NCBI GenBank assembly: GCA_964486045.1
Contig: CAZALK010000001.1
Location: forward strand, 808,242 to 872,241
Direction: 5' to 3'
Length of the DNA stretch: 64,000 bases
Source: an uncultured archaeon
GTDB taxonomy: Archaea > Asgardarchaeota > Lokiarchaeia > Sigyniarchaeales > SOKP01
In this document: piece after piece, positions 41,440-64,000 of the stretch
Position numbering within the stretch: the first letter of the stretch is position 1
Layout of the letters: every line of letters starts with the position of its first letter
Notes under the pieces: generated by a model
The model's input: only the letters and a program-made list of their open reading frames with translations
Told to the model about the DNA's origin: nothing
Databases searched by the model: none
Program-made: the position numbers and the translations under genes

Positions 41440-42284
41440 ACAAAAAAAATTTAATTTTGAACATTATTTCGATCTTGAGATAGATAATCTTTCTAAAAAT
41501 ACTCAGAAGTCAAAATTCGTTGCGTTTAAAAGATTTTATACAGTTATCGGGAATGAAGATTTTTACAGCATGTATTACCTATTAAAAGAGTTAAAAAAAT
41601 ACCTCTCTTTTGCAAAAAAAAAATTCTAGATATTGGATGTGGATCTGGTAGATTTTTAATACTCTGTACTTTAATTGAGAATCCCCTTTATTGTGTTGGT
41701 TTAGATCCTGCAGAAGGCCTTGGAAGTGATAAGAATACCATTCAAAATTTTAGGGAAAATATTGAAACATTAAATATTAAAAATATTGAAACATTAAATA
41801 TTAAAAATATTGAAACATTAAATATTAAAAATATTGAAGTAATGAGAAAAGATATTTGGGATTTTGAGCCGAAAGATTTAAAATTTAATATAATTGTCGC
41901 ACAAAATTCTTTACACCATATCATTGAAACTTCAAAAAATCTTTTAAATAGTGATTCTAAAAAAAAAAACATCGTGAGTTGTTTTTAAATTTTTTTAACT
42001 CTTTAGAAGATAATGGTGTTTTCATAATCAAGGAGGCTTCCAAATATAATTTGGCCAGATATTGGCCATTTTATGGAAGATTATTAAAAACTATAAATAT
42101 AAATTAGGAAACAAAACATAGCCCGAAGGAATATATAAGAATTCTAAGAGAATGTGAATTTCAGATTAGTGTAAAACTGTTTAAAGTACCGTATAGTCTT
42201 GATAAAATCAGAAGATTTCTCTCTAATCCATTTGCAAGCTTCTTTATTAACTCAACATATTTCATCATAGCATCGAAATCTTAA
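41432..42284 (+). pseudogene. Class I SAM methyltransferase disrupted by two poly-A frameshifts and a TAG
   Basis: A10 (41614..41623) separates the N-terminus from ILDIGCGSG; A11 (41959..41969) shifts the frame again; in-frame TAG at 42105 (likely from TGG); SLHH and NGVFIIKE motifs are retained. Confidence 0.85.
41756..41838 (+). repeat. Perfect 24-nt tandem repeat x3.5 (NIETLNIK)
   Basis: aaaatattgaaacattaaatatta repeated directly. Confidence 0.95.
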
Positions 42285-42357
42285 TTTCTTAACTTTAATC
42301 TTGGAATTATCTTTTTGATAAATTCCCTTTTGGATAATAAAACTTGTCTACTAACAA

Positions 42358-43278
42358 TTAAAACGTTTTTATAAATAAATCTTCAAGAGACATTTCGATT
42401 TCTTTTATTTTCATAATCTCATAATTACTTAATATGCTGAGAAGATCCTTGTAATAGGTTCTTTCTTTTAGACAGACGAGAATACCATTTTTTTGCTGTT
42501 CGGTGATATCTGTTATAAAATCATGACTATGTAATTCAGAAAGTAGCTCTTGTTTTTTGCGAGCTAGGGAGATCTCAACTTTTATCTCGGAACCCGATAA
42601 CCTTTTAATCTCTTCTTGAGTCCCTATTTTAAGAATTTTTCCTTCATTGATGAATGCAATTCTGTTGCACAATTTCTCAACCACAGATAAATTATGGCTC
42701 GTGAAGATGATGGTGCTCTCGACGTGTTTGATGATGTCAATAAACAGATTAACTGTTTTTACATCCAGTCCCAGCGTAGGTTCATCAAGAAATAAGATAT
42801 CGCGTTCTAATAATAACGTTCGAGCTAAGGCGAGTTTCATTTTCATTCCGCTAGAGAGAGTTTCCGCATATTGGCCAAGCCAATCTTCGATTCCGAATAT
42901 TTTTGCCATATTAATGATTTTTTCTTGATAATTAGGTACTTTATATAATTTACAAAAGAATTTTAAATTATCATAAGCTGTTATCCTGTAATAGAGCATT
43001 TCGCTTTCTAACATTAAAGCAACCTTTGACTTGACTTTTTTAGCATTTTTCAAGAGATGATAACCGTCTACAAGTGCGTAGCCGCTGGTTGGATGGAGTA
43101 ATGTGGTTAATATTTGGATTAGTGTTGTCTTTCCTGCGCCATTCGGTCCTAAAAGACCAAAAATCTCACCTTTTTTAATGGAAATATTAACATTATCTAA
43201 TGCATTTACATGAATGTCTTTTCCTTTTAGATGGTAGATTTTTGATAAACCAAATGTTTCAATTATATTATCTGTCAA
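42358..43278 (-). CDS. ABC transporter ATP-binding protein (ABC-2 exporter, DrrA/NodI type)
   Basis: GPNGAGKTT, LSSGM, FLDEPT, SH loop, C-terminal SLEDLF. Confidence 0.95.
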   Translation of the reverse strand: MTDNIIETFGLSKIYHLKGKDIHVNALDNVNISIKKGEIFGLLGPNGAGKTTLIQILTTLLHPTSGYALVDGYHLLKNAKKVKSKVALMLESEMLYYRITAYDNLKFFCKLYKVPNYQEKIINMAKIFGIEDWLGQYAETLSSGMKMKLALARTLLLERDILFLDEPTLGLDVKTVNLFIDIIKHVESTIIFTSHNLSVVEKLCNRIAFINEGKILKIGTQEEIKRLSGSEIKVEISLARKKQELLSELHSHDFITDITEQQKNGILVCLKERTYYKDLLSILSNYEIMKIKEIEMSLEDLFIKTF

Positions 43279-48021: not shown

Positions 48022-49359
48022 ATGGGCAATGAAAATGAAATTGACCAAATAAAAAATGAGATTCTTAATAATGTAAAATTGTATTATGCAAAAAAATTTC
48101 AAAAAGATGAAAAATTCATTCCAGGTGAAACTCGAATAAATTATGCTGGAAGAGTCTTTGACGAGAAAGAACTTGTAAATTTAATTGAATCTTCTTTAGA
48201 TTTTTGGCTTACAGAAGGAAGATTTACTCGTCAGTTTGAAAAAGATTTAGCAAATTTCCTTGGCATGAAATATTGTCTATTTACAACTTCAGGTTCCTCT
48301 GCTAATTTATTAGCAACTATGGCGCTCACATCTCAAAAATTAGATAATACACGAAGAGTAAAACCAGGCGATGAGATCATTACAGTTTCCGCTGGTTTTC
48401 CCACTACGATATTTCCAATTATTCAAGCAAGAGCCGTTCCAGTATTTGTTGATATTGAATTAGATACATGTAATATTGAAACGAAAGAATTAGATAATGC
48501 TCTTTCAAACAAAACTAAAGCAATTATATTAGCTCACACTCTTGGAAACCCATTTGATATTAATAAAGTAAAAAATTTTTGTGATAAAAACAAGCTCTGG
48601 TTAATTGAAGATAATTGTGATGCTTTAGGATCTAAGTATAATAATAAATATACAGGTACATTCGGTGATATTTCTACTTATTCTTTTTATCCAGCTCATC
48701 ATATTACTATGGGGGAGGGAGGTGCTTTGATTACTAATGATTCAATATTACATAAAATCATCAAATCATTAAGAGAATGGGGGAGAGATTGCTGGTGTGA
48801 TCCTGGAACAGATAATACTTGTAATAAACGATTTGATTGGCATTTAGGAACACTTCCATATGGATATGATCATAAATTTACATATTCAGAATTTGGATAT
48901 AATCTAAAAATTACCGATATGCAAGCTGCAATTGGTTTGGCACAACTTAGAAAATTACCTCAATTTATAAAGGCTCGAAAAGATAATCATAAAAGATTAT
49001 TTGAAGGATTGAACCATTTAAAAGATAAGTTATTGCTTCCAAAAAGTCAACCAAAATCAGACCCTAGCTGGTTTGGATTTTTACTGACCTTAAAAGATGG
49101 TAATCAATTATCCCGTACAGAAATTATGAAAAAGTTAGAAGATAAAAAAATCCAGTCAAGAATACTATTTGCTGGTAATATAATTCGGCAACCTGTATTT
49201 AATAATATGCGAGAATCTAAGAAAGGTTTTAAAGTAGTTGGAGATTTAATTAATACTGATAAGGTAATGAACGATTCTTTTTGGGTCGGAGTGTATCCAG
49301 GGATGACTGATGAAAAAATTGATTATATGATAATGCAAATAAATAAGCTATTTAAGTAA
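48022..49359 (+). CDS. rfbH: CDP-4-keto-6-deoxyglucose 3-dehydrase (E1, RfbH/DdhC; PMP/[2Fe-2S])
   Basis: SGSSANLLA, EDNCDALGS, SFYPAHHITMGEGG (His in place of the PLP Lys), WGRDCWC..G.DNTC, GYDHK. Confidence 0.95.
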   Translation: MGNENEIDQIKNEILNNVKLYYAKKFQKDEKFIPGETRINYAGRVFDEKELVNLIESSLDFWLTEGRFTRQFEKDLANFLGMKYCLFTTSGSSANLLATMALTSQKLDNTRRVKPGDEIITVSAGFPTTIFPIIQARAVPVFVDIELDTCNIETKELDNALSNKTKAIILAHTLGNPFDINKVKNFCDKNKLWLIEDNCDALGSKYNNKYTGTFGDISTYSFYPAHHITMGEGGALITNDSILHKIIKSLREWGRDCWCDPGTDNTCNKRFDWHLGTLPYGYDHKFTYSEFGYNLKITDMQAAIGLAQLRKLPQFIKARKDNHKRLFEGLNHLKDKLLLPKSQPKSDPSWFGFLLTLKDGNQLSRTEIMKKLEDKKIQSRILFAGNIIRQPVFNNMRESKKGFKVVGDLINTDKVMNDSFWVGVYPGMTDEKIDYMIMQINKLFK

Positions 49360-49624
49360 ATTGAGTTTTCTAACTATACAATATCGGAATTGATAAGAAC
49401 AGCTATAGTAGTATTAAAGATTATTCTTGAATATCCTTAATTATATCTTCTTATACTTTTGAGAGCTTTACCTCCCTACTTCTAAAAAATACAATTAATG
49501 GAAAAAAAAGTATATAAATAATAATTAGATACATTTAAACTACACGATAGCTATATTTGATATTACTAACTCTTAATTTAGAAAGTACCAAATTTATTTC
49601 ATACAATAAAAGCTATATATCAAA

Positions 49625-50326
49625 ATGCCTATAATTACATCTTTAACTAAAAAATTAAAAATATACGCCCCTATGATTAACCAGATCCTTAATCTTATAA
49701 AAAATCGTAGATTTTTCTCAAAATCAATAAAATCTACCTTTACAAATATATATTTAAGCAGTCATTGGGGTTCTCATGAATCTATATCTGGACCAGGTTC
49801 TACAATAAGCCAAACATATAAAATAAGAGAAATGATACCTGTGCTTCTCGAAAAGTATCGAATAAAAACATTATTAGATATACCTTGCGGAGATTTAAAT
49901 TGGTTAAGCCAAATTGATTTAAGCTCCTTTCAGTACATAGGTGGGGACATAGTTAATGGAATTATTAAAAGAAATAAACTCCATTTTTCTGGAAATAATA
50001 GAACATTTAAAATCATTGATATTACTAAAGATAGACTCCCTAAATCCGATTTACTTTTGTGCAAAGATTGTTTGGTTCATTTTTCGTACCGAAATATCTT
50101 TAAAACACTCCAAAACATAAAAAAAAGTGAAATTCAATATCTTTTAACCACTCACTTTTACGCAAGAAGTTTTAATAGAAATATCTTAACTGGTGGTTGG
50201 CGCCCAATAAATTTAACGAAACACCCGTTTAATTTTCCAAAACCCTTAGAAATGATTATTGAAAAAAATAGGGCTTATTATGACAAAACATTAGCTTTAT
50301 GGAAGATAAATGAATTGAAACTCTAG
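49625..50326 (+). CDS. Class I SAM-dependent methyltransferase
   Basis: SGPGST, LDIPCGD.NW, YIGGDIV, DCLVH, GGWRPINL. Confidence 0.85.
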   Translation: MPIITSLTKKLKIYAPMINQILNLIKNRRFFSKSIKSTFTNIYLSSHWGSHESISGPGSTISQTYKIREMIPVLLEKYRIKTLLDIPCGDLNWLSQIDLSSFQYIGGDIVNGIIKRNKLHFSGNNRTFKIIDITKDRLPKSDLLLCKDCLVHFSYRNIFKTLQNIKKSEIQYLLTTHFYARSFNRNILTGGWRPINLTKHPFNFPKPLEMIIEKNRAYYDKTLALWKINELKL

Positions 50327-50348
50327 TATTTTATTATCACGTAATTGA

Positions 50349-50608
50349 TTATTTTAATTCTGCAAAGATCCAATCATCTTCATTTCTGTATAGAATATTA
50401 AAATCAGAGTATATATTTGTTTGAAAATGTGCATCAGTAAATTTTACTTTAAATAACACATATGAAACATTCATAAATTCAATATCTCCTTTGAATTCAA
50501 TGTAATCAGTGGAATTTAAATAATGCGTAGAATTACAATCAAAAGTATAATATATTTTTTCTAAGTTTTCTACTTCTATTAAGGTATACAAGAAGTGAAT
50601 ATATTCTC
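50349..50608 (-). pseudogene. Orphan 3' fragment (1 of 3) of the family-B membrane protein
   Basis: NSTHYLNSTDYIEFKGDIEFMNVSYVLF...YSDFNILYRNEDDWIFA, nearly identical to the C-termini of 59661 and 62181. Confidence 0.9.
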
Positions 50609-50887
50609 CACCCCCCGATTGGTATGAATAATAAAATTATACTATAGGTATAAAAAATGTAGTATATCATGAGTAAAAAATAAATTAGTTTTTAAAAATG
50701 TAAAGTAATATTTTTATTAAAACGGACTAAACAATTAATTGAGAATCCTAATCTATTCAAACACTTTCTTCTCTATAAATAGATGATGAATAGAGAAATT
50801 TTCAAAACTATTTATTGAAATCTCTATATAGTTTCTATTTCTTAAATTATCTTTTAAAATTACAGGTATAGCCTGGTCATTAATAAT

Positions 50888-52726
50888 TTATTCTATAGTT
50901 TCAAATTCATTCATATACAGAAATAATGTTAAAATTCTAGTAATTACACTGATGTTCTTTTCTTTTTCAATCAACCGTTTAGTATCTTCAATAGAAAAGT
51001 AATCTTTTAGAATATTAGATTTTGAAATTAGTTCGATGGAAAATAATTTTAATTTTGCCATCTTTGGACTCACCAAACGTCTATTACTCCAAATTTTTAT
51101 TAATTTTAGCATAAAACTCGCTAATTTTCTAATTCTAACATTTCGGACTAAATTTTCTGCTATATTATTCAATTTAAGCATGAATTTATTATTCAATTTA
51201 AGCATGAATTTTTTATTCAACCCCAAATTATTATTGAAATAGTTTACAGAACATGTTCTTGGATCAAGCGAAAAAAGGAAATCTCTAAATAATTTTGTGT
51301 GTTTTTTTCTTTCGTCGATAGAATAGGCATATTCAAAGAATTTTTTAGAAAAATATGGAGTAATGATCCAGTAGAATAGTCTAGATCTATCTTCTCCTTC
51401 TCCCGCCCACTTATAATCTTTCTCAAACTTGAAATGCAAATATTTCGAATATACATCCACCTCGCTATAGGAGGATATGTGACTCAACAGATGATTAAAA
51501 ATTACCTTTTTAGAAATTTTTAGAATATTACAAACATTTTTTATGGAATGTCGATATTTATCTGGTGTTGTTATAAGAAAATCTACTAAATCTTTATCTG
51601 AAGAAAGACCTGACGTAATATTTAGATATCTTGTTATCTCTCCTCCATAAAGTCCTGTGTAAAAAGCGATGTTATTGCCTTCTTGTTCATATATCTGTTC
51701 TGAAATATCTACTTGATTCACAAGTTCAATCGGTTGAAAACAATCTTTCATCTTTACGAGTTTTAGATATTTTTCAAAATTCACTTCATTAAATTTTGAT
51801 TTAAAATGAATAAGAGGAATACCAAACTCACTGGCAATTTTTTTCGAGTATATAGACTCATTCTCATTTTTTTTTGATATAGTATAAGTAATTCCATTGG
51901 GGGAAACACCCAACTTTATTAAACCGGCTAAAGTTGCTCTGGAATCAAGACCTCCACTCAATGAAATAATCTGTTTTCTCGATCTTAATTTATTTACCCT
52001 ACTCTCCAAACCTAATAAGAAGTACCGTTTGAGATTTTTAACATAATCCTCCTCCTCGTTAAGGAAGGGGTGTTTGGCTAAAAACTTTGGATAATTTAAT
52101 CGACCATTAATGCTGGCATCAGCATTATAAACTATGAAAGAACTTGGCATTAATCTCGTTATCCTTTCAATCAATGTCCTTTCTCCAAGCACAAAACCAA
52201 ATAATAGATATTCTACAAGAGATTTCTTTTCAAATTTAATTTTATTGACATACGGATAAATGAACTTGATTTCTCGAGAAATAATAATAAAATTATCACC
52301 TTCATACCAGTATAATGGTAATCTTCCTAAAGAATCGTTGAATAAACAAAAAACATTTTTAATTTTATCATAAATAACAATTATAAACTCGCCATCAGCT
52401 ATAAATTGAAATTTTCTTATTTTTTCTTCAAAGTTATTTTTATCTGAAGCAGAATCAAATATTTCATAAAGTAATTCCTTAATTTGTTCATCATCCATAT
52501 TATAAATCATTCCTTCTATCAATATTATAAAAGATTCATCATCAACTATTTCTATAGGATATTCTTTATAGGCAGTTGACCCGATAATAACGTTGGAATT
52601 TTGGAATAATACCCTCGATTTATATGAAGGATAATGTAACATCTTTTTTTGGATATCCTCGAGTTTCTGTGAATCTAACAAAGATTTATTCTTCTTTTGA
52701 GAGAAGATGATATTTATACCGACCAT
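50888..52726 (-). CDS. Asparagine-synthase-related ATP-dependent amide ligase lacking the N-terminal catalytic Cys
   Basis: MVGI instead of MCGI; DGEF, ND.LGRLPLY, SLSGGLDSR, TGLYGGE. Confidence 0.8.
   Translation of the reverse strand: MVGINIIFSQKKNKSLLDSQKLEDIQKKMLHYPSYKSRVLFQNSNVIIGSTAYKEYPIEIVDDESFIILIEGMIYNMDDEQIKELLYEIFDSASDKNNFEEKIRKFQFIADGEFIIVIYDKIKNVFCLFNDSLGRLPLYWYEGDNFIIISREIKFIYPYVNKIKFEKKSLVEYLLFGFVLGERTLIERITRLMPSSFIVYNADASINGRLNYPKFLAKHPFLNEEEDYVKNLKRYFLLGLESRVNKLRSRKQIISLSGGLDSRATLAGLIKLGVSPNGITYTISKKNENESIYSKKIASEFGIPLIHFKSKFNEVNFEKYLKLVKMKDCFQPIELVNQVDISEQIYEQEGNNIAFYTGLYGGEITRYLNITSGLSSDKDLVDFLITTPDKYRHSIKNVCNILKISKKVIFNHLLSHISSYSEVDVYSKYLHFKFEKDYKWAGEGEDRSRLFYWIITPYFSKKFFEYAYSIDERKKHTKLFRDFLFSLDPRTCSVNYFNNNLGLNKKFMLKLNNKFMLKLNNIAENLVRNVRIRKLASFMLKLIKIWSNRRLVSPKMAKLKLFSIELISKSNILKDYFSIEDTKRLIEKEKNISVITRILTLFLYMNEFETIE
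51164..51220 (-). repeat. In-frame 24-nt tandem duplication (KFMLKLNN x2)
   Basis: attattcaatttaagcatgaattt twice plus a partial third copy. Confidence 0.9.
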
Positions 52727-52938
52727 TAATTTTAAAAATCATTTATATTTTGTATTATTTTCCAAAAACTTGGAAAGAAGTTATCAACCCCAATATTAAA
52801 TTTGAAAATATTCAAAGATTTCTATAAATATTTGGTCATTACAGCATCCAAATCATTCTTTAGACTGATTTTTATCTAAATCTAATTTTAAGAATAATAA
52901 TAGCTAAAATTTATCAGAATTATCTAACGCATATTGAT

Positions 52939-53175
52939 TCATTTTAATCCTGCAAAAATCCAGTCATCTTCATTTCTATAGAGAATATTAAAATCAGAAT
53001 AAAAATCTGTTTGAAAATCCATATTAGTAAATTTTGATAAAAATAAGAAAGTTTTAGCATTTAGGTGTATTTTAGAACAAATTATTGGTATGGATTTTTC
53101 AATTATAATTAAATTCTTTTTTGACTGATTCTGGTTAATATAATAAATTTTTTTTAAAATATCTTTGATTTTCAT
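52939..53175 (-). pseudogene. Chimeric ORF: unrelated 5' gene stub fused to orphan 3' fragment (2 of 3) of the family-B membrane protein
   Basis: The last ~31 aa (KFTNMDFQTDFYSDFNILYRNEDDWIFAGLK) match family B; the first ~46 aa do not, and have their own GGAG upstream. Confidence 0.8.
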
Positions 53176-53211
53176 TATATTTTAAACTTCTCCGTTTTTT
53201 AAAGGATATAA

Positions 53212-54339
53212 TTAGTAATTATACAGTTCCCTTTTTATTATTTCAACAATTCTCTTAGCCGTTTTTCCATCCCATTTTTCTATATTGCTTCCTTTTTTAT
53301 GTTTATTTAGAACAATTTTGTTTAAATGTATCTTTATTTTCTCAATATCATTCCCTACTAAGTTATTTGTACCTTTTTTAATTGTAATCGGTCTTTCCGT
53401 ATTTTTTCTCATGGTAAGTACTGGGATTTTAAGATATGATGCTTCTTCTTGGATCCCTCCAGAATCTGTAAAGATTAATTTTGAATTTATCATTAAATTT
53501 AGAAACTCGTGATAACCAACAGGATCGGTTATTAAAATATTTTTATTTTCAAGATTTTGAAGTAATTCGAATTTGATAAGATTCTTTTTAGTCCTAGGAT
53601 GAATTGGAAAGATTATTTTAATAATTTTCCCAATGTAGTTTAAAATCTCGACAATTTTTATCAAATCCTTTTTGTTGTCAACATTTGATGGACGATGAAG
53701 AGTTACAAGAACAAACTGCTTTTTTTCTAAATTGAAATTTTTATAAAACTCAATATCTACTGCTCTAACTAGATTATTAATAAGATTGTCAATCATAATA
53801 TTACCTACAAAAAAAATTCTTTTTGAGTTAATTCCTTCTCTTATTAAATTTACTTTCGCGCTTTTCTCTGTAATAAATAAAAAATCTGCTAGCTGATCTG
53901 TTAAAATTCGGTTTATTTCTTCAGGCATCTTTACATCAAAACTTCTTAAACCGGCTTCAATATGAGCAACCTTAATGAATAATTTTTTTGCTACTAAAGC
54001 ACATGCTATAGTTGAATTGACATCCCCAACAACAATTACCAGATCAGGTTTCTGTTCTAAAATTATTTTTTCAAATTCTATCATAATCTTTGCTGTTTGT
54101 ATGGCATGGCTTCCTGATCCTATGTTTAAAAAATAATCTGGTTCTTGAATACCCAGATGATCAAAGAAGATTTTAGACATATTATAATCATAATGCTGTC
54201 CTGTGTGTATTAATTTAAAATCAAGATTTTGATTATTCAATTCCTTAATGATAGGACTAATTTTCATGAAATTTGGCCGGGCGCCTGCGATAATATAGAT
54301 CATTCTATTCATTTTAGATCTTTTTAAAAAAACTTTCAT
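53212..54339 (-). CDS. wecB: UDP-N-acetylglucosamine 2-epimerase (non-hydrolysing)
   Basis: GARPNFMK, HTGQHYD, VGDVNST, HIEAGLRS, MPEEINR, TDSGGIQEE, TERP. Confidence 0.95.
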   Translation of the reverse strand: MKVFLKRSKMNRMIYIIAGARPNFMKISPIIKELNNQNLDFKLIHTGQHYDYNMSKIFFDHLGIQEPDYFLNIGSGSHAIQTAKIMIEFEKIILEQKPDLVIVVGDVNSTIACALVAKKLFIKVAHIEAGLRSFDVKMPEEINRILTDQLADFLFITEKSAKVNLIREGINSKRIFFVGNIMIDNLINNLVRAVDIEFYKNFNLEKKQFVLVTLHRPSNVDNKKDLIKIVEILNYIGKIIKIIFPIHPRTKKNLIKFELLQNLENKNILITDPVGYHEFLNLMINSKLIFTDSGGIQEEASYLKIPVLTMRKNTERPITIKKGTNNLVGNDIEKIKIHLNKIVLNKHKKGSNIEKWDGKTAKRIVEIIKRELYNY

Positions 54340-54481
54340 TTAAAATGATTTTTAATTGATTTAATAGAAGTTAAAATAATTCATTAATTTAATTATCTTT
54401 AAATTTATAACTCATAACATTATAACTCAGTATCATTTTGAGATATAAATATATTAGTAGACTTGTAAATTATTTGTAATA

Positions 54482-54545
54482 ATTCTTCATAGGCAGTTAG
54501 CCCGATAATAACAACAGAGTTTTGGAATAATGCACTAGATTTATA
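54482..54545 (-). pseudogene. Internal remnant of the asparagine-synthase-related gene (50888..52726)
   Basis: YKSSALFQNSVVIIGLTAYEE versus YKSRVLFQNSNVIIGSTAYKE; DNA aligns to 52561..52624. Confidence 0.8.
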
Positions 54546-54574
54546 GAAATGACAATATTTATACCGATCATTAA

Positions 54575-55372
54575 TTATATTGATTTTAATTCTGCAAAAA
54601 GCCAATCATCCTCATTTCTGTGTAAAATATTAAAATCAGAGTATAAATTTGTTTGAAAATCTACATCAGTAAATTTTACATTAAATAACACATACGAAAC
54701 ATTCATAAACTCAATATCTCCTTTAAATTCGATGTAATCAGTGGAATTTAGATAATGTGTAGAATTACAATCAAAAATATAATATATTTTTTCTAAGTTT
54801 TCTACTTGTATTAAAGCAGACAAGAAGTGAATATATTCATCATCCTGATTCTCAACACGTAAAATTTTTTCTGCATACAATGGATTTTCATCGAAGTAAT
54901 TACCAGCAAACAAAACAACATCTGTTTGCCTATCAGTAAAATAATAACGCGTCCATTCTGATGTTCTTGGATAATTAAGATTATAATAAATTCCATATAG
55001 GAAAATAATTGACATCATGAGAAATGCGTTAGTAATTCTTTTTATCGATTTCTTTTCTATAATTTTTCTAATTCCTCTATTGTTGACTATTTTTTAATTT
55101 AATTTAATTTTATAAATTGATCTTTTCGCTAAAATTATAATAAATACAAAAGGGAAAACAAACAGTATAACCCAAAATCCAGAGAATAATTTAATTAGAC
55201 GTATGAGGTAAAGGTCCATAAATGCATTAATCCTTGGGAGAAAATAGATAATAAATTCAATATATAAATTAAAATTATTAAAATAAAAGTATATTTAATA
55301 AATCTAATTAAATATCTCTGTTTTTTATTGAAGTGAAGGAATTTATAAACTGGAATAAAAATTCCGATGACT
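54575..55372 (-). pseudogene. Orphan 3' fragment (3 of 3, ~800 bp) of the family-B membrane protein
   Basis: The 147-aa open part matches the C-terminal domain; upstream DNA continues to match (LFSGFWVILFVFPFV, VIGIFIPV) with lesions until about 55372. Confidence 0.88.
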
Positions 55373-55480
55373 TTCCAAACTATTATTGTTTCTAATTTCC
55401 TTTATTTTTGAATTCTTTGAGTAGTGTTATCGTGACACCAAAAAAAGAACAATAACTTGTTTATTTAATTTCCAAATCAG

Positions 55481-56830
55481 TTACAAAGTAGAATTTAGAG
55501 TTTCTACAATATTATAAGGGAAATATTGGCCTGTTCTTCCAATTAAAGAGATTTTTGAAGTTATCTTTTTTAAAGCTTCTTTTAAACGAACTATCTCTTT
55601 GTTATAGTCAACAAACAGTAAAGGATACGCTTCCTCGTAATAATTACTTCCTAAATATTTTATTTCTGATTTTCTTAAATTGTACAATGAACAAAATTGA
55701 TTTAAAGATTTTTTAATTAATTCAGAAGGATTAAGGATCTTTTTGTCTAATGTTATTTCTAGACAGGCGGAAGTTTTATTTTTTGGAGTCATAAACGGAC
55801 TAATTTTATTTGGCTCATAAATTCTATGAAAAAGAATATTCGGTATCATAATATATGATGCGTGTACTTTATCACCAAGTAAGTCTTTTTTATTAATACT
55901 TATATTTATTGTAAGTAATTTCCTATATTTTAATTGATTATAATTCTTTAATTTTAAAATATTGATAAGATCTAAGATTGAAGCTGCCCAGTATATTTTA
56001 TCAAATACTTCAGTATAAACATTTTTTCCGTACATGTATTTTATTCTAATGTTATCGTTATATAAGGTTAAATCTGTTATCGTAGAGTTTGTTTTAATTA
56101 TTCCATTATTTAGTATAATACCATCTTTCAAGAAATCAATTACTCCCTTACATCCATATTTGGGGTAAAGATATAAATTATTAAGCTTTAATTTATCCTT
56201 TTCCGAATATTTTGGGTTAACCCTTTTATGCGTATTTGAATTGAAACCTTTTTGGATTATTGATTCAAGATTTTTTTGGATTGTATGTCTAATTCGTGGG
56301 GGTGTGACTCTAGCTCTAAAATCTTTAGATATATTTGAAATTTCAAAATCCCAAAAATTTGACATGAAAGGATACATGTGATCTTGATAAAATTTTGATC
56401 CCCATGAATTAATCAATGAATCTTCAAGATTTTTTTCTTTAACTTTATGTTTTGAAGTGTTTAAGTAAGAAATAATAAATTTTATCATAGATAAAATATT
56501 ATTAAATTTGAGATTTTTAATAATTCTTAAATCTGGTGGAAAAACTAGATCAAAACCAGGTTTTAATTTTATATTAACTTTGATTGGGAGAGGTATATTT
56601 ATTGAATTCACTCTTTCACACAAATCATTCCATATCTTGTGAAATCTGGGGGGTATATGTGGACCTACATCAAAATAATACGATCCATTTCCATATTCAA
56701 ATTTGATTGTATGTAATTGTCCTCCTAAATTCTCCGTTTTTTCCAATATCTGGACATAGTGTCCTTCTTTCAGTGATGAATATGCTTTATATAAACCCGC
56801 TATGCCTGCTCCAATTATTAAAATGCGCAT
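55481..56830 (-). CDS. FAD-dependent oxidoreductase, UDP-galactopyranose mutase/protoporphyrinogen-oxidase-like family
   Basis: IIGAGIAGL, LEK...LGG, FDVGPH, YPKYG, RIYEP, AYP, IGRTGQY. Confidence 0.75.
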   Translation of the reverse strand: MRILIIGAGIAGLYKAYSSLKEGHYVQILEKTENLGGQLHTIKFEYGNGSYYFDVGPHIPPRFHKIWNDLCERVNSINIPLPIKVNIKLKPGFDLVFPPDLRIIKNLKFNNILSMIKFIISYLNTSKHKVKEKNLEDSLINSWGSKFYQDHMYPFMSNFWDFEISNISKDFRARVTPPRIRHTIQKNLESIIQKGFNSNTHKRVNPKYSEKDKLKLNNLYLYPKYGCKGVIDFLKDGIILNNGIIKTNSTITDLTLYNDNIRIKYMYGKNVYTEVFDKIYWAASILDLINILKLKNYNQLKYRKLLTINISINKKDLLGDKVHASYIMIPNILFHRIYEPNKISPFMTPKNKTSACLEITLDKKILNPSELIKKSLNQFCSLYNLRKSEIKYLGSNYYEEAYPLLFVDYNKEIVRLKEALKKITSKISLIGRTGQYFPYNIVETLNSTL

Positions 56831-57095
56831 TTTATGAAACTCCTTAAGCTATCTAATTTACTCTTACTTAAATTCTCTCAGTTATTTTGTAGTAACTATC
56901 TTTACTATAGGATATATAATCTTTTAGCAAGAAAATATAATGAAAAATATGGAATACACAAAGTTTGAGCAATGTACTAAAACAATATATTTCAGTTAAG
57001 AGTCGCCGAAATTTTTGATTGCATTAACCTACGATTATTTCGAAATTATTATGGTTATAGAAGCTGAAAGTTATGAGATTTACCTAACACATTAA

Positions 57096-59321
57096 TCATT
57101 TTATTTTTATAAACATCCAACCATCCTCATTTATATATAGAATATTAAAATCATTAGTGAGATTTGTTTGAAAATCTACATTAGGAAATTTTATAGTAAA
57201 TAAACCATAAGAAATATTCATAGCCTCAAGATTTCCTTTAAATTCAAGGTAATCCGTGAAATCCAAAATATCGTCAGAAGTATAATCAAAATTAAAATAT
57301 CTTTTTTTTAAGTTTTCTACTTGTATTATGTCATACAAGAAGTGATAATATGGTCCGTTCTCAACAAGTAATATATTTTCTTCATCCAATGGATTTTCAT
57401 CGAAGTAATTTCCAGCAACCAAAACAACATCTGTTTGGCCTTCATCAAAATAATGAGTTGACCATCCTAACGTTCTTGGATAATTAAGAGTATAATAAAT
57501 ACCACTTAGGCAAATAATTAATATCGAGAAAAATGCGTTAAAATATCGGTTTATTAATTTCTTTTCTTTAATTTTTTTAAATCCTCTTCTGATGGCTAAA
57601 ATTTTATATAATCTAAATTTCCTAACTATTCTCTTCCCTATAATTTTTCTAAATCCTCTTTTGTTGGCTAATTTTTTATATATTATAATTTTCCTAATTA
57701 ACCTCTTCACTAAAACTATGATAAATACAAAAGGGAATAAAAATATTATAACCCAAAATCCCGAGAATAATTCAATAAGACGTATGAGGTAGACTTCCAG
57801 AAATGGTTTAAGATTCTGGGGAAATTTGATCCATTCCTCCGCCATATAAATTAAAACTGTAAAAACAAAACTAAATTTGATAAATCTAACTAAGTTTTTC
57901 TGTTTCTTATTTAAGTGAAAGAAATAATTAACTGGAATAAAAATTCCGATGATTATAAAAATTATGCCCGACCCAAAAATCCAAGAAAAATGGACAATAT
58001 TAGTGTTTCTAACTGGGGTAAAAATAAGTTTAAAAATGTCTAACTCAAAATCTCCCATTTTTGTGTTATATAAAAGGTCTTCAGCCATTTTAATAAACAT
58101 TTCTCCAATCTTAAAGATACCAGATAATGGGTCATAAAGATATAAAGGTTTAAAATAAAAAGAATAAGCATCCCACAAGGCATTACCAAAAGTCAATGAG
58201 TAATATATAAGATAAGGGAGCATCATCACGAAGAAAATTGATAAAATTGAAATAAGTTGTAGAAAGAATTGTCCTATATTGATTAATTTAAATGTCATAT
58301 TTGATCTGTTTCTTATTAGTGTTATAATGAAGGAAAAAATCTCAAATAAAAAATAAAAAATTATGTAATAAAGTCCATACAGAGGATGAGCCATAGTTAT
58401 CCCAGAGAGGATAATCCCTCTTGTTAGTATGTTTTTAATCTTAAATTTCAAAAAAAACTTTTTTCTTAATTTATTTTCATTTGAGAGCATATTTACAATA
58501 GATCCTTCTTTAAGCGTTAATATAAATAGGAATCCTAATGTAGTACTTAAGGTTGAAGGTACCAGCATGGAAAAACGATAAAAATAATATTGATTACTTA
58601 AAAAGAGTAGTAAAGCACAGAAAATTATAATTTTTTTTTTAAAAAAGAATTTTAAAATTTCATATAAAGCAATTAAATTTATAACTGTTAGGAAAAATGG
58701 CAAATATTTGCAAAAAAAAAATGCATTTAGAAAATTATCATTCAATGAGATTAAGCTTGAGGTGAATAATACAAATCCAGGAGGGTATACTCCAACCAAA
58801 TCAAAATTTAATGACCTATTATTATGGATAGACCAAACTTCTCCAAACCATAAATAAGGGTCAATACTAGGGTAGCCTATACGTTGCCATATGATAAACA
58901 TTTGAAATATATAGAGAAGCACAAAAATTACGGCTAGCATTAAGAAATTTGAAATATTGCTTTTTAAAAGAAGGAACATTTTTTTCCAGGTAACTGCTTT
59001 TATTTTTTCCTTCAGTTTTATATTATTTTTCTTAACCCTATAGATTATGAAACATATATCTATTACTATAAAAGGTAAATATATTGTTAAAACATTAAAT
59101 ATCTGAAAAGTGATTATGATAAGTAAGTAAAATACATGAAGACAAACACCTATAGCAAAAGATATTAATATAAATGAAATTTTACTCCCTCTCTCGATTC
59201 TTTTTTTACTAATAAGTAAAAAGCCAATAGAACCAAATATTGAAAAAATAATAAAATAAGCGAAAAATTGGAGTATTGTAATTATGAAATATCCTTCAAT
59301 AAAAAGTAAATTTAAAATCAA
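57096..59321 (-). CDS. Multi-pass membrane protein, putative GT-C-fold glycosyltransferase (family B, copy 1)
   Basis: About 13-14 TM segments, YPSIDPYLW, YPPGF, YRFSM.VPSTLST, HPLYG, soluble C-terminal domain. Confidence 0.75.
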   Translation of the reverse strand: MILNLLFIEGYFIITILQFFAYFIIFSIFGSIGFLLISKKRIERGSKISFILISFAIGVCLHVFYLLIIITFQIFNVLTIYLPFIVIDICFIIYRVKKNNIKLKEKIKAVTWKKMFLLLKSNISNFLMLAVIFVLLYIFQMFIIWQRIGYPSIDPYLWFGEVWSIHNNRSLNFDLVGVYPPGFVLFTSSLISLNDNFLNAFFFCKYLPFFLTVINLIALYEILKFFFKKKIIIFCALLLFLSNQYYFYRFSMLVPSTLSTTLGFLFILTLKEGSIVNMLSNENKLRKKFFLKFKIKNILTRGIILSGITMAHPLYGLYYIIFYFLFEIFSFIITLIRNRSNMTFKLINIGQFFLQLISILSIFFVMMLPYLIYYSLTFGNALWDAYSFYFKPLYLYDPLSGIFKIGEMFIKMAEDLLYNTKMGDFELDIFKLIFTPVRNTNIVHFSWIFGSGIIFIIIGIFIPVNYFFHLNKKQKNLVRFIKFSFVFTVLIYMAEEWIKFPQNLKPFLEVYLIRLIELFSGFWVIIFLFPFVFIIVLVKRLIRKIIIYKKLANKRGFRKIIGKRIVRKFRLYKILAIRRGFKKIKEKKLINRYFNAFFSILIICLSGIYYTLNYPRTLGWSTHYFDEGQTDVVLVAGNYFDENPLDEENILLVENGPYYHFLYDIIQVENLKKRYFNFDYTSDDILDFTDYLEFKGNLEAMNISYGLFTIKFPNVDFQTNLTNDFNILYINEDGWMFIKIK

Positions 59322-59660
59322 AACAGAACCACTTTTACCTTATAATATTAAAAGAAAAAATTTAAAAGTTGTTATTAGGGGATTTAGTTGTCATTGATAA
59401 TTGACCTGATTTTAGAAAAAATGAGTTAAAGAATAAAATTCTAAATATTCAGATTTATGTTTCTTTAAATATTATTTTCATTAATAAATTTCAAATCTCT
59501 ATAATTGTTATTTACAAGAAAATCATCTAAATAGCTTGAGAATTATGCATAGAAAATGGGGACTTGCCCCCAACATGTAGAATATTTTTTTACTAATTCT
59601 GAATAATTCTTCAATTTCAAAATTTCCATGAAAGATGATAACTATCTAACACATTTTTGT
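59322..59660. repeat. 339-bp intergenic spacer duplicated at 61842..62180
   Basis: Both spacers are exactly 339 bp and alignable (gaaccactttt, ttataatatt, gttgttatt, ttcaaatctc, tcttcaatttcaaaatttc). Confidence 0.85.
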
Positions 59661-61841
59661 TCATATAAATTTTGCAAAAATCCAATCATCTTCATTTCTA
59701 TATAGAATATTAAAATCAGAATACAAATTTGTTTGAAAATCTTCGTCGGTAAATTTTACGTTAAATAAAACATATGAAACATTCATAAATTCAATATCTC
59801 CTTTAAATTCAATGTAATCAGTGGAATTTAAATAATGCGTAGAATTAAAATCAAAGATATAATAGTCTTTTTCTAATTTCTCCACTTGTATTAAGTTAAA
59901 TAAAACGTGAATTAATACTTCACTCTGATTCTGAATAAGCATTATTTTTTCTTCACCTAGGGGATTTTCATTGAAGTAATTACCAGCAAACAAAACAACG
60001 TCTATTTGGCTATCATCAAAATAATAACGTGTCCATCCTAATGTTCTTGGATAATTAATAATATAATAATAACCACTTAAGAAAATAATTGACATTACGA
60101 GAAATGTGCTAGCAAATCTTTTAATTAATTTCTTTTCATTAATTTTTGAAATAGTTTTTTTCTTGGCTATATTTCTACTTAATTTGATTTTACAAATTGA
60201 TCTTTTCACAAAAATTAGAATAAATGCAAAAGGAAACACAAATAATATAACCCAAAATCCAGAGAATAATTCAAATAGGCGTCTGAGGTGCAAATCTAAA
60301 AACGCGTTAATTCCTGTTAGAAAATAGGTAACATCATTTGGTAAAACATCGATAATACCCCTTAACAAATAAATTAAAAATGTTAAAATAAAGGTAAATT
60401 TAATAAATCTAACTAAAATTCTCTGTTTTTTATTTAAGTGAAAGAATTTATTAACTGGAATAAAAATTCCGATGACTATAAAAAATATCCCTGTTCCAAA
60501 AATCCAATAAAAATGTGCGATATTACCAATATTGATGGAAGCAAAAAAAATATTAGGAAAATAACTCTCAATATCATATATTACGGGAAGAGTTAAAAGA
60601 AATTCAGCCAAATTAAAAAAAAATTCTCCAATCTGAGCAACACCAGGTAACGGGCCAAAAAGATATAAAGGTTTAAAAATAGAAAATACTTCAATAAAGG
60701 AATAACCTAAAAACAATGAATAAAATACGATATAAGGAAGCAACATCACTAAGAAAATTGAAAAAATTGAAATTAGTCGTAGAAAGAAATGTCCCATATT
60801 GATTTTTTTTAGCTTTCTATTTATCTTTCCCTTTTTTAATCTTATAAGGAAATATAATATTTCAAATAAAAAATAAAAAATTAAGTAATAAAGTCCATAT
60901 AGAGGGTTAGCCATAGTTATTCCAGAAAGGATAATCCCTCTTGCTATAATGTTTTTATTCTTAAAATTTAAAAATACCCTTTTTCGCAATTTAATCTCAT
61001 TTGAGAGCATATTGACAATTGATCCTTCTTTAAGCGTTAATAAAAATAGGAATCCTAACATTGTACTTAAGGTTGAAGGTAACAGCATTGAAAAACGATA
61101 GAAGTAATATTGATTACTTAAGAAGAGTAGTAAAGCACAGAAAATTATAATTTTATTTTTAAAAAAGAATTTTAAAATTTCAAATAAAACAATTAAATTT
61201 ATAGCTGCTAGAAAAAATGGCATGTATTTGCATACAAAATATGCAATTAGAAAATTATCATTAAATGAGATTATGCTTGAGGTGAATACTACAAATCCAG
61301 GAGGATATACTCCAAAAGCCTCAAGATTCAGTGTGTTATGCTTTTGGATATTCAAAATTTCTCCAAACCACAAATAAGGGTCAATACCAGGGTAACTTAC
61401 ACGTTGCCATAGAATAAACATTTGAAATATATAGAGCAGTACAATAATTGTGGCTACCATTAGGAAATTTGGTATATTGCTTTTTAAAAGAATTGAAATT
61501 TTTTTCCAGCTAACTGTTTTTAATTTGTCTTTTAGTTTTACTTTACTTTTCTTGAAGCAATAAATTATGAAACATATATCTATTATAATAAAGGGTAAGT
61601 ATATTGTAAAAAAATTAAATATCTGAGAAGAAAATATGATGAATGAATAAATTATATGAAGACAAACTCCTATAGCAAAAGATATTAATACAAATGATAT
61701 CCTATTCCATTTCTCCGGTCGTTTTTTACTAAAAATTAAAAAACCAATAGATCCAAATATTGAAAAGGTAATAAAATAAGTGATAAATAGGAGTAGTGCA
61801 ATTATGAAATATACATCAGAAGTAAGTATATTTAAAATCAA
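59661..61841 (-). CDS. Multi-pass membrane protein, putative GT-C-fold glycosyltransferase (family B, copy 2)
   Basis: Paralog of 57096..59321; YPGIDPYLW, YPPGF; conserved TTG start. Confidence 0.75.
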   Translation of the reverse strand: MILNILTSDVYFIIALLLFITYFITFSIFGSIGFLIFSKKRPEKWNRISFVLISFAIGVCLHIIYSFIIFSSQIFNFFTIYLPFIIIDICFIIYCFKKSKVKLKDKLKTVSWKKISILLKSNIPNFLMVATIIVLLYIFQMFILWQRVSYPGIDPYLWFGEILNIQKHNTLNLEAFGVYPPGFVVFTSSIISFNDNFLIAYFVCKYMPFFLAAINLIVLFEILKFFFKNKIIIFCALLLFLSNQYYFYRFSMLLPSTLSTMLGFLFLLTLKEGSIVNMLSNEIKLRKRVFLNFKNKNIIARGIILSGITMANPLYGLYYLIFYFLFEILYFLIRLKKGKINRKLKKINMGHFFLRLISIFSIFLVMLLPYIVFYSLFLGYSFIEVFSIFKPLYLFGPLPGVAQIGEFFFNLAEFLLTLPVIYDIESYFPNIFFASINIGNIAHFYWIFGTGIFFIVIGIFIPVNKFFHLNKKQRILVRFIKFTFILTFLIYLLRGIIDVLPNDVTYFLTGINAFLDLHLRRLFELFSGFWVILFVFPFAFILIFVKRSICKIKLSRNIAKKKTISKINEKKLIKRFASTFLVMSIIFLSGYYYIINYPRTLGWTRYYFDDSQIDVVLFAGNYFNENPLGEEKIMLIQNQSEVLIHVLFNLIQVEKLEKDYYIFDFNSTHYLNSTDYIEFKGDIEFMNVSYVLFNVKFTDEDFQTNLYSDFNILYRNEDDWIFAKFI

Positions 61842-62180
61842 AACTGAACCACTTTTTATCTTATAATATTATAAGAAGAGATTTAAACGTTGTTATTATG
61901 CAATTTAGTTGTCGTTACTAATAGAACTGTTTTTAGGATAAATGAGCTAAAGAACAAGATTCGAAAGATATAGATTTGCATTATGCCATACATTATTTTC
62001 CTATATATATTTCAAATCTCCACCATTGTCATTAAAAAAAAATCCTCTGAATATCTTAAGAATTACACTTAGTAAATAGAAACCTGCCCCTAACTTGTAA
62101 ATTCATTCTTAACTGATTCTGTATAACTCTTCAATTTCAAAATTTCAATAAAAAATGATAAATATCTTTCACATTTGTAT
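61842..62180. repeat. Second copy of the 339-bp intergenic spacer
   Basis: Aligns with 59322..59660. Confidence 0.85.
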
Positions 62181-64000
62181 TCATTTAAATTTTGCAAAAA
62201 TCCAATCATCTTCATTTCTATATAGAATATTAAAATCAGAGTATAAATACGCTTGAAAATCTTCATCGGAAAATTTTACATTAAATAACACATATGTAAC
62301 ATTCATAAATTCAATATCTCCTTTAAATTCAATGTAATCAATGGGTTTTAAATAATGCGTAGAATTAGAATCAAAAATGTAATATATTTTTTCTAAGTTC
62401 TCCACTTGTATTAATGCATATAGGATTTGATTACGCTGTCCACTCTGATTTTGAAAAATCATAGTATTTTCTTCATCTAGGGGATTTTCATTGAAATAAT
62501 TTCCAGCAAACAAAACAACATCTATATGGCCATCAGTAAAATAATAAAGCATCCAATCTGATGTTTTTGAATAATTTAGAGTATAATAAATTCCGCCTAG
62601 GAAAATGATTGGTATAATGAAAAATGCTTTAGCAATTCTTCTCATTGATTTATTTTCAATGACTTTTGTATTTTTTTTTTTATTGGCTATTTTTCTATTA
62701 AATTTGATTTTACGAATTGATCTTTTCACAACAATTATAATACACACAAAAGGAAAAGCAAATAATAAAACCCAAAATCCAGAGAATAATTCAATTAATC
62801 GTATGATGTAAACATCTAAAAATGCATTAATTCCTGTTAGAAAATAAGTAATTTCATTTGGTAAAACATCGATAATACCATTTAACAAATAAATTAGGAA
62901 TGTTAAAATAAAGGTAAATTTAATAAATCTAACTAAAAATCGCTGTTTTTTATTTAAGTGAAAGAATTTATTAACGGGAATAAAAATTCCGATGGCTACA
63001 TAAATTATACCTGTTCCAAAAATCCAAAAAAAATGTGGTATATTACCAATATTAATTAAATCAAAAAAAACATTTGAAATTAAAGTCTCCATTCCTTGTA
63101 TTATTACTGTTTGAGATAAAAGAAATTCAGCCAAATTAAAAAAAAATTCTCCAATCTGAGCAACACCAGGTAACGGGCCAAAAAGATATAAAGGTTTAAA
63201 AATAGAAAATACTTCAATAAAGGAATAACCTAAAACCAATGAGTAATATATAATATAAGGGAGCATCATCACCAAGAAAATTGAAAAAATTGAAATAAGT
63301 TGTAGAAAGAAATTCCCCATATTGATTATTTTTAGCTTTAAATGTGTCTTTTCTCTTTTTAATTTTATAATAAAAAAAAAAATTTCAAATAAAAAATAAA
63401 AAATTATGTAATAAAGTCCATATAAAGGCTGAGTCATAGTCATTCCAGAAAGGATAATTCCTCTTACTAGAAAGTTTTTATTCTTAAAATTTAAGAATAT
63501 CCTTTTTCGCAATTTTATCTCATTTGAGAGCATATTGATAATGGATCCTTCTTTAAGCGATAAAAAAAATAAGAATCCTAACGTTGTACTTAAGGTTGAA
63601 GGTAAAAACATAGAATAACGATAAAAGTAATATTGATTACTTAAAAAGATGAGTAAAGCACAGAAAATTATAAGTTTTTTTTTAAAAAAGAATTTTATAA
63701 TTTCATATAAAACAATTAAATTTATAGCTGTAAGAAAAATTGGCATGTATTTGCAGAAAAAATATGCAATTAGAAAATTATCATTCAATGAGATTATGCT
63801 TGAGGTGAATAATACAAATCCCGGAGGATATACTCCAAAGACCTCAAGATTTAATGATCCATGCTTTTGGATAAACCAAATTTCTTCAAACCACAAATAG
63901 GGGTCAATACCAGGATAACTTGCATGTTGCCATATGATAAACATTTGAAATATATAGAGCAGTATAAAAATTGTGCCTATCATTAAGAAATTTGAAATAT
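62181..64000 (-). CDS. Multi-pass membrane protein, putative GT-C-fold glycosyltransferase (family B, copy 3; 5' end beyond the window)
   Basis: Paralog of the previous two; the frame is open to the window edge, and ATG 63983 corresponds to an internal Met of the paralogs. Confidence 0.75.
   Translation of the reverse strand, partial: ISNFLMIGTIFILLYIFQMFIIWQHASYPGIDPYLWFEEIWFIQKHGSLNLEVFGVYPPGFVLFTSSIISLNDNFLIAYFFCKYMPIFLTAINLIVLYEIIKFFFKKKLIIFCALLIFLSNQYYFYRYSMFLPSTLSTTLGFLFFLSLKEGSIINMLSNEIKLRKRIFLNFKNKNFLVRGIILSGMTMTQPLYGLYYIIFYFLFEIFFFIIKLKREKTHLKLKIINMGNFFLQLISIFSIFLVMMLPYIIYYSLVLGYSFIEVFSIFKPLYLFGPLPGVAQIGEFFFNLAEFLLSQTVIIQGMETLISNVFFDLINIGNIPHFFWIFGTGIIYVAIGIFIPVNKFFHLNKKQRFLVRFIKFTFILTFLIYLLNGIIDVLPNEITYFLTGINAFLDVYIIRLIELFSGFWVLLFAFPFVCIIIVVKRSIRKIKFNRKIANKKKNTKVIENKSMRRIAKAFFIIPIIFLGGIYYTLNYSKTSDWMLYYFTDGHIDVVLFAGNYFNENPLDEENTMIFQNQSGQRNQILYALIQVENLEKIYYIFDSNSTHYLKPIDYIEFKGDIEFMNVTYVLFNVKFSDEDFQAYLYSDFNILYRNEDDWIFAKFK

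Follow-up and report, generated by a model that had tools for sequence, protein, structure and literature searches.

Why does the 3' end of one gene recur six times in a single orientation among the glycan genes of a Lokiarchaeon (Promethearchaeota), and what are the three copies that stand there as orphans, detached from the rest of the gene? The questions are raised by a 64,000-nucleotide (nt) stretch of the genome of this uncultured archaeon, hereafter the window; coordinates beyond 64000 are extended coordinates in the same numbering, and sequences compared with the window carry L numbers. An earlier note on this DNA had read the three orphan ends, here called O1, O2 and O3, as a cassette reservoir that serves the long GT-C genes beside them and lets the locus expand and contract like an accordion. 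Our results lead to a different answer. We see in the region the variable arm of an island for surface-glycan biosynthesis, and O1 to O3 are very probably recombination and deletion scars, the remains of dead GT-C genes in an island of the replacement type that varies between strains.

Layout of the locus

A repeat finder and a blastn search of the window with gene B and its flanks as query both returned six copies of one gene 3' end, all in the same orientation on the minus strand. Three of them close long genes: paralog A (57096-59321, minus strand, 741 amino acids [aa]), the most divergent of the three and sister to the gene of L017; paralog B (59661-61841, minus strand, 726 aa), the copy used for modelling; and paralog C, which extends on the minus strand from 62181 past the end of the window to a start at about 64364 in extended coordinates and is intact in the genome, with 727 aa. 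Their stops (57096, 59661 and 62181) are spaced by 2565 and 2520 nt, C and B share 77% of their amino acids, and the three genes are intact tandem duplicates of a 2.5-kb unit. The other three copies match B over about 805 bp at 80% identity (O1, 54580-55383), 118 bp at 84% (O2, 52918-53035) and 267 bp at 86.5% (O3, 50345-50611), and gene searches place a flavoprotein gene, wecB and an AsnB-like amidotransferase gene between the pieces. The layout described in the earlier note is borne out in each of these respects: the six gene ends on one strand, the three long tandem genes with their two periods, and the three orphan pieces separated by different tailoring genes.

The earlier note had also raised the question of whether the repeats were created by assembly. 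An identical arrangement, at 100% identity over 20.5 kb, is present in an independent European Nucleotide Archive (ENA) assembly of another sample (L022/L027/L029), and two Logan contigs of run SRR8799001 cover it in pieces, again at 100% identity and with contig ends inside O1 and O3. One of these (L023) reaches position 50487, and the other (L028) begins within O1, crosses wecB, O2 and the AsnB-like gene and ends near position 50546. Since the six-copy layout is reproduced without a mismatch in the second sample's assembly and covered piecewise by the Logan contigs, it is not an assembly artefact.

Structure and descent of the orphan ends

O1 (54575-55383, minus strand) is the relic of a fourth GT-C gene, of the type found in Loki_b32, cut at about codon 455. 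It carries one frameshift and one in-frame TAA, such that residues of about 455 to 500 are read in one frame and the remainder in a shifted frame, and its stop has been lost, the ancestral TGA now being TCA and the frame closing two codons later. The part that corresponds to the C-terminal domain is open. O1 is a degraded pseudogene fragment, and its 5' junction can still be read: a spacer is joined, about 100 nt past the flavoprotein stop, to GT-C codon ~455. The same spacer runs on in the sister strain and in L017, which retains the intact order GT-C, flavoprotein, GT-C. O1 arose by a plain deletion that began in the spacer behind the flavoprotein gene and ended near codon 455 of a Loki_b32-type GT-C gene further downstream, and it decayed afterwards.

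The other two are shorter stumps that adjoin stumps of other genes. O2 (52918-53035, minus strand) holds the last ~32 codons and the stop of a GT-C gene and lies inside an open reading frame (ORF) of 78 aa (52939-53175), of which only the last ~32 residues are confidently homologous to the family, the N-terminal part being faintly related by hhalign. Its 3' flank (52800-52938, minus strand) has its homologue in the sequence that follows the GT-C gene of L011, with 82.6% identity between L011 5210-5445 and window positions 52800-53035. O3 (50345-50611, minus strand) is what remains of a Loki_b32-type GT-C gene, its last ~86 codons and TAA stop, in an open frame. Three properties that had been ascribed to the orphans hold for some of them only. 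The stop codon is kept by O2 and, as TAA, by O3, but not by O1; the C-terminal parts are open in O3 and in the domain-coding part of O1, but O1 as a whole is interrupted; and a recognisable 3' flank, of the L011 type, is found at O2 but not at O1 or O3.

The claim that the orphans are very close to the intact genes is an overstatement. O1 and O3 are 91% identical to each other in nucleotide sequence and 89% and 93% identical, respectively, to the gene of Loki_b32, while their identity to the resident genes A, B and C is 72-87%, less than they share with orthologues from other genomes, and the stretches that an orphan shares exactly with an intact gene are 15-42 nt at their longest. In maximum likelihood trees, O1 falls outside a clade of B, C and L011 that has 97% support, and A pairs with L017 with 100% support. 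As judged from these comparisons, O1 and O3 are not derived from the resident intact genes and represent a different lineage that has not been homogenised with them.

Comparison with a sister strain

The sister haplotype is represented by ENA sample SAMN11268106 (L021 and L024), by assembly GCA_024239015.1 (L025) and by Logan run SRR8799000 (L026). From position 67200 down to 56700, a segment that includes C, B, A and the first ~90 flavoprotein codons, the two haplotypes differ at 15 of 10,501 nt (99.86% identity), but from 56555 to 55383, in the rest of the flavoprotein gene and the spacer, they differ at 165 of 1,268 nt (87% identity). Beyond 55383, the sister shows no similarity for more than 19 kb and carries unrelated glycan genes. 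The crossover between strains can be placed at about 56555-56580, in flavoprotein codons ~84-92, the first mismatch at 56555 following 1.7 kb of identity; it sits in the flavoprotein gene and not in a GT-C repeat. The view of the region as a surface-glycan locus that varies between close strains is supported by this comparison.

The sister stretch contains an rmlB fragment, a fragment of a 508-aa gene, AbiEi/AbiEii and a 38-codon 5' end of a GT-C gene of the Loki_b32 type fused to the 3' part of a flavoprotein gene, followed by epimerase, DegT, acetyltransferase and cytidylyltransferase genes. Of GT-C stumps, the sister haplotype holds a 5' one and none from the 3' end. The AbiEi/AbiEii pair, a toxin-antitoxin system, is inserted in the variable part of the sister's island (L021 16665-18195) and is absent from the haplotype of the window.

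Variation of the kind expected from cassette exchange was not seen. A, B and C are 99.9-100% identical across the two haplotypes and five assemblies, no chimeric C terminus or variant with an excised gene was found in the available assemblies, which cover these two haplotypes, and the exact WecB and flavoprotein proteins occur in one genomic context only in the searched collection. The proposal that related metagenome-assembled genomes (MAGs) would show chimeric C termini or excision finds no example here, and the one breakpoint that separates the strains lies in the flavoprotein gene.

Stumps of other genes

At least five further genes, one of them represented by a 5' GT-C piece, have left fragments in the locus or its relatives, and for this reason 3' cassettes do not stand out as a class of their own. 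The 5' end of an AsnB-like gene is left as a remnant that abuts O1 (54482-54579, minus strand, 80% identical to 52561-52734). Between the AsnB-like gene and O3 lies a remnant (50676-50801, minus strand) that resembles the junction of a methyltransferase 3' end and a GT4 5' end in Loki_b32, matching L010 3707-3833 with 75% identity. The 508-aa gene upstream of C is represented by a 3' remnant of its last ~30 codons and terminator region (61992-62163, minus strand), homologous to extended positions 65584-65651, L010 8265-8433, L011 2675-2843 and L021 15437-15607, and by a second copy at the duplication junction (59471-59641, minus strand). These remnants, found after C and after B, mark the junction of the 2.5-kb tandem duplication unit. 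The conserved "intergenic element" of 170 nt had also been considered as an RNA gene and was rejected, being the coding 3' remnant with its terminator; Rfam gave no match in 49000-64000 at E values up to 0.1.

Truncations of related genes are seen in other metagenomes as well. L014 carries a 139-aa remnant of the GT-C family with an internal deletion, and in L015 the first 85 codons of the flavoprotein gene are fused to GT-C residue 423 onward. The extents of the remnants vary by lineage, with the cut at residue 423 in L015 and at about 455 in O1, and no insertion sequence (IS) or H-repeat element was seen at the junctions. The flavoprotein fragment of L015 ends at a point equivalent to window position 56580, at most about 25 nt from the strain crossover described above, and the two are independent events. 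Both breaks fall at about codon 84-92, just past the part that encodes the Rossmann fold, and their coincidence may reflect a hotspot or may be chance.

Alternative explanations

One other reading of the orphans takes the short ORFs (147 aa in O1, 78 aa in O2 and 80 aa in O3) as functional stand-alone genes, for instance as separate C-terminal domains that aid the GT-C enzymes. The 147-aa ORF of O1 comprises the last helix and the C-terminal domain, gene callers predict all three ORFs in the independent assembly, and comparable divisions occur elsewhere, the Loki_b32 gene being split by an in-frame TAA before the same domain to leave a 111-aa ORF and the L030 gene being split into 439 and 164 aa. 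The ratio of nonsynonymous to synonymous substitution rates (dN/dS) in the part that encodes the C-terminal domain is also low, at 0.2-0.35 for O1 against O3 and against Loki_b32, with a value of 0.21, from small counts, for O1 against O3. In the comparison with Loki_b32, however, the ratio for O1 is 0.76 overall and 1.72 in its upstream part, and that for O3 is 0.71. All these ratios rest on 22-57 differences and range from 0.21 to 1.72 depending on segment and partner, so that they have little power and are not decisive. The structure of the ORFs also speaks against independent function: O2 and O3 have no helix or export signal and cover 32-86 of the ~120 residues of the domain, the ORF of O1 begins at an internal methionine past the nonsense codon, and remnants elsewhere differ irregularly in extent. 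We regard it as very unlikely that any of the three is a gene in its own right.

A second reading is that of a contingency locus, in which the orphan 3' ends are donors and recombination swaps the external C-terminal domain and deletes or amplifies the tailoring genes between the repeats. Six co-oriented repeats that flank single tailoring genes are what such a system would look like, the C-terminal parts of O3 and O1 are open, and the locus does differ between strains. Repeats in this locus also recombine, as seen from a patch of 119 nt that is identical between B and C (60594-60712 and 63117-63235), against an overall identity of ~85%, and that adjoins the most divergent loop (B residues ~420-448), a pattern that suggests gene conversion between the tandem copies. 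Recombination between repeats is in this way supported among the intact copies. The orphans stand at 72-87% identity to the intact genes with exact matches of 15-42 nt at most and are another lineage that has escaped homogenisation. O1 is disrupted by a frameshift and a stop, the two haplotypes agree at 99.9-100% of positions in A, B and C, the breakpoint lies outside the GT-C repeats in the flavoprotein gene, no alternative context was found for the exact WecB and flavoprotein proteins, and the stumps of many unrelated genes together with the 5' GT-C stump argue for general erosion. It is very unlikely that the orphans form a cassette reservoir or accordion. We would give an equally slender chance to the idea that the six GT-C 3' ends are low-frequency recombination substrates in Lokiarchaeal populations, with the stumps retained for their homology; were this true, C-terminal domains would be re-assorted and single tailoring genes deleted or duplicated, and the region would be an archaeal glycan contingency locus.

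That the repeats stem from a collapsed or chimeric assembly of several strains, or from binning, is barely conceivable, for while the contamination estimate of the MAG is 7.8% and the Logan short-read contigs end inside O1 and O3, the copies have diverged by 9-28% and cannot be collapsed copies, and the independent ENA assembly and the contigs of SRR8799001 agree with the window at 100%.

The reading that we prefer, with good confidence, is still that of scars left by turnover of the island. Turnover would proceed through homologous recombination in shared genes, together with illegitimate deletions and insertions. Several observations weigh against this explanation. The remnants O1, O2, O3, L014 and L015 all retain the 3' end, a bias that is accounted for by inference only: 3' pieces without a promoter would be harmless and tolerated, whereas a 5' piece driven by a promoter would be made into a truncated polytopic membrane protein, which selection should remove. 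O3 and the domain part of O1 are still open, with a low dN/dS between them, as would be expected if both had diverged while intact, the counts being small. The B-C patch shows that repeats of this locus can recombine, and events mediated by the orphans may have occurred. Finally, the comparison includes two haplotypes only, both from one study, and one boundary of the replaced island.

The GT-C family of the long genes

The long paralogs gave no sequence match in Pfam, NCBIfam or PDB. We built an AlphaFold (AF2) model of B on 15 homologues (predicted template modeling score [pTM] of 0.75), for which the top Foldseek matches were AglB, STT3, DPY19, AftA, ALG and ArnT, with a probability of 1.0, and the best 20 chains in VIA-align were all GT-C enzymes (Z 8-18, over residues ~118-726). 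EmbA, AftA, AftB and AftD were among the structural matches. Both searches back the earlier description of the genes as GT-C-like, and in the model the family of A, B and C has a clear GT-C fold with three extra N-terminal helices before the core. D154-P155 and W158 do not vary among the 15 homologues and are located in the first large loop behind transmembrane helix 4 (TM4), the helix that aligns with TM1 of GT-C enzymes. D154 is the conserved acidic residue in the first extracytoplasmic loop of the GT-C core and a candidate for a catalytic role. At the C terminus, a lysine-rich basic linker leads to the last helix and to a domain of ~120 aa, which contains several N-X-S/T sequons and by the positive-inside rule would be located outside the membrane.

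The translations of A, B and C contain no match to PF02516 (STT3) and no WWD/WWDYG motif, and a canonical AglB/STT3 match is located elsewhere in the genome, on contig C13. Because of the missing signature and the presence of the canonical enzyme, A, B and C are GT-C enzymes that exist in addition to the oligosaccharyltransferase. They are likely to be polyprenol-phosphate-sugar-dependent transferases on the outer face of the membrane, and they would attach or lengthen a glycan whose production falls to the rml/DegT, GT4/GT2 and ABC-2 transporter genes nearby.

The family is rare, with 212 representative clusters among 1.84 billion proteins, and patchy, since a search of 24 other species of the genus turned it up in 4. 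A search with the family alignment had at least three genome loci and at least two metagenome loci among the matches listed. The closest named record is that of Promethearchaeota Loki_b32 (L010), and tandem pairs of family members, with ABC-2 transporter, GT4 and GT2 genes next to them, are seen in relatives further removed. Literature searches gave no description of this GT-C family or locus in Asgard archaea. The in-frame TAA of the Loki_b32 gene (L010 11764-11822) falls just before the last helix or the C-terminal domain and divides the gene into 587 and 111 aa, and the split of the L030 gene is at 1321-1348; both are in or near the A-rich lysine linker and could be either real lesions or sequencing errors.

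Gene C has an A11 tract on the coding strand (62671-62681) in the lysine-rich linker before the last helix and a T11 tract upstream (63372-63382). These tracts were considered as evidence of phase variation and rejected, such tracts being common throughout the window and these two being identical in both haplotypes. Over the window as a whole, there is roughly one homopolymer tract of nine or more bases per 2 kb. An A10 tract (41614-41623) and an A11 tract (41959-41969) also lie in a stretch of ~900 nt without a long ORF (41439-42358).

Neighbouring genes

The gene next to A encodes a FAD/NAD(P)-binding flavoprotein (55481-56830, minus strand) that is PRK07208-like. It had been called UGM-like, a likeness that is present but only faint, as TIGR00031 scores 22.6 bits against a cut-off of 304. 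WecB, a UDP-GlcNAc 2-epimerase, is encoded by an intact gene (53212-54339, minus strand; E value of 1e-107), and the AsnB-like glutamine amidotransferase gene (50888-52726, minus strand) is also intact, its 612-aa product giving a GATase_7 match and a weak Asn_synthase match. Two more large ORFs are located in the same glycan region, at 17855-19780 and 33904-35874 (641 and 656 aa).

Implications and comparison with known systems

If our preferred explanation is right, the striking repeat layout is ordinary debris of a fast-turning surface-glycan island, and a false lead has been removed. What is documented in its place is a strain-level replacement of a glycan island in Lokiarchaeia, with its breakpoint mapped to ~25 nt, and the Lokiarchaeal cell surface is of interest for both eukaryogenesis and virus-host interactions. 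The locus also draws attention to a rare, uncharacterised GT-C family distinct from AglB, of which three intact and at least three dead copies are found here, and it may serve to illustrate how the units of a tandem duplication and the junctions left by deletions are recognised in loci of this sort.

The likeness to rhs/cdi arrays and to pilS/vls silent cassettes, on which the earlier note had relied, is superficial and consists in full genes followed by co-oriented 3' fragments. An rhs/cdi array consists of a full gene for a polymorphic toxin and of orphan C-terminal modules that each precede a cognate immunity gene. The analogy fails on these defining features: the genes here are GT-C enzymes with no toxin-immunity logic, and the orphans are followed by wecB, the AsnB-like gene or convergent genes. 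The silent cassettes of pilS and vls are promoterless partial copies in which handles of high identity flank variable segments. Antigenic variation of that kind is a poor model for the present locus, where there is no variable segment behind a conserved handle, the supposed cassettes are degraded, as the lesions of O1 show, and of low identity (72-87%, with exact matches of 15-42 nt), and no chimeras are seen in the assemblies.

The intact genes have closer parallels. As in the mycobacterial embC-embA-embB cluster and the Aft enzymes, three adjacent GT-C paralogs each carry a C-terminal domain that is, here by prediction, extracytoplasmic, but there is no relationship at the sequence level, and the domain is much smaller here, at ~120 aa. 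AglB and STT3 provide the best structural matches of the B model (Z 18.1 to 3waj), and the C-terminal domain faintly resembles the globular domain of AglB-S2 (Z 6.3), in contrast to the lack of an STT3 Pfam match and of the WWDYG motif.

For the island as a whole, replacement flexible genomic islands are an apt comparison; in these, genes for exposed glycans are exchanged by homologous recombination, with peaks of substitution at the boundaries (PMC4033161). The present data differ in that one boundary and two haplotypes are seen, but the main features are alike: the glycan gene sets found at one locus differ between near-identical strains, and the boundary lies in a shared gene with raised substitutions, here 87% against 99.86% identity. 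For the stumps, the nearest counterpart is in Salmonella O-antigen clusters, where wzy remnants in groups B1 and D1 have been degraded by different serial deletions (PMC3715488). The host here is an Asgard archaeon and the family an uncharacterised GT-C family, no IS or H-repeat was seen at the junctions, and, unlike in Salmonella, a single family supplies both three remnants and the three intact tandem copies beside them. In both cases, dead pieces of a membrane gene for glycan assembly lie between intact genes for sugar pathways and transferases, the extents of the same gene differ by lineage through separate serial deletions, and the remnants mark past replacements.

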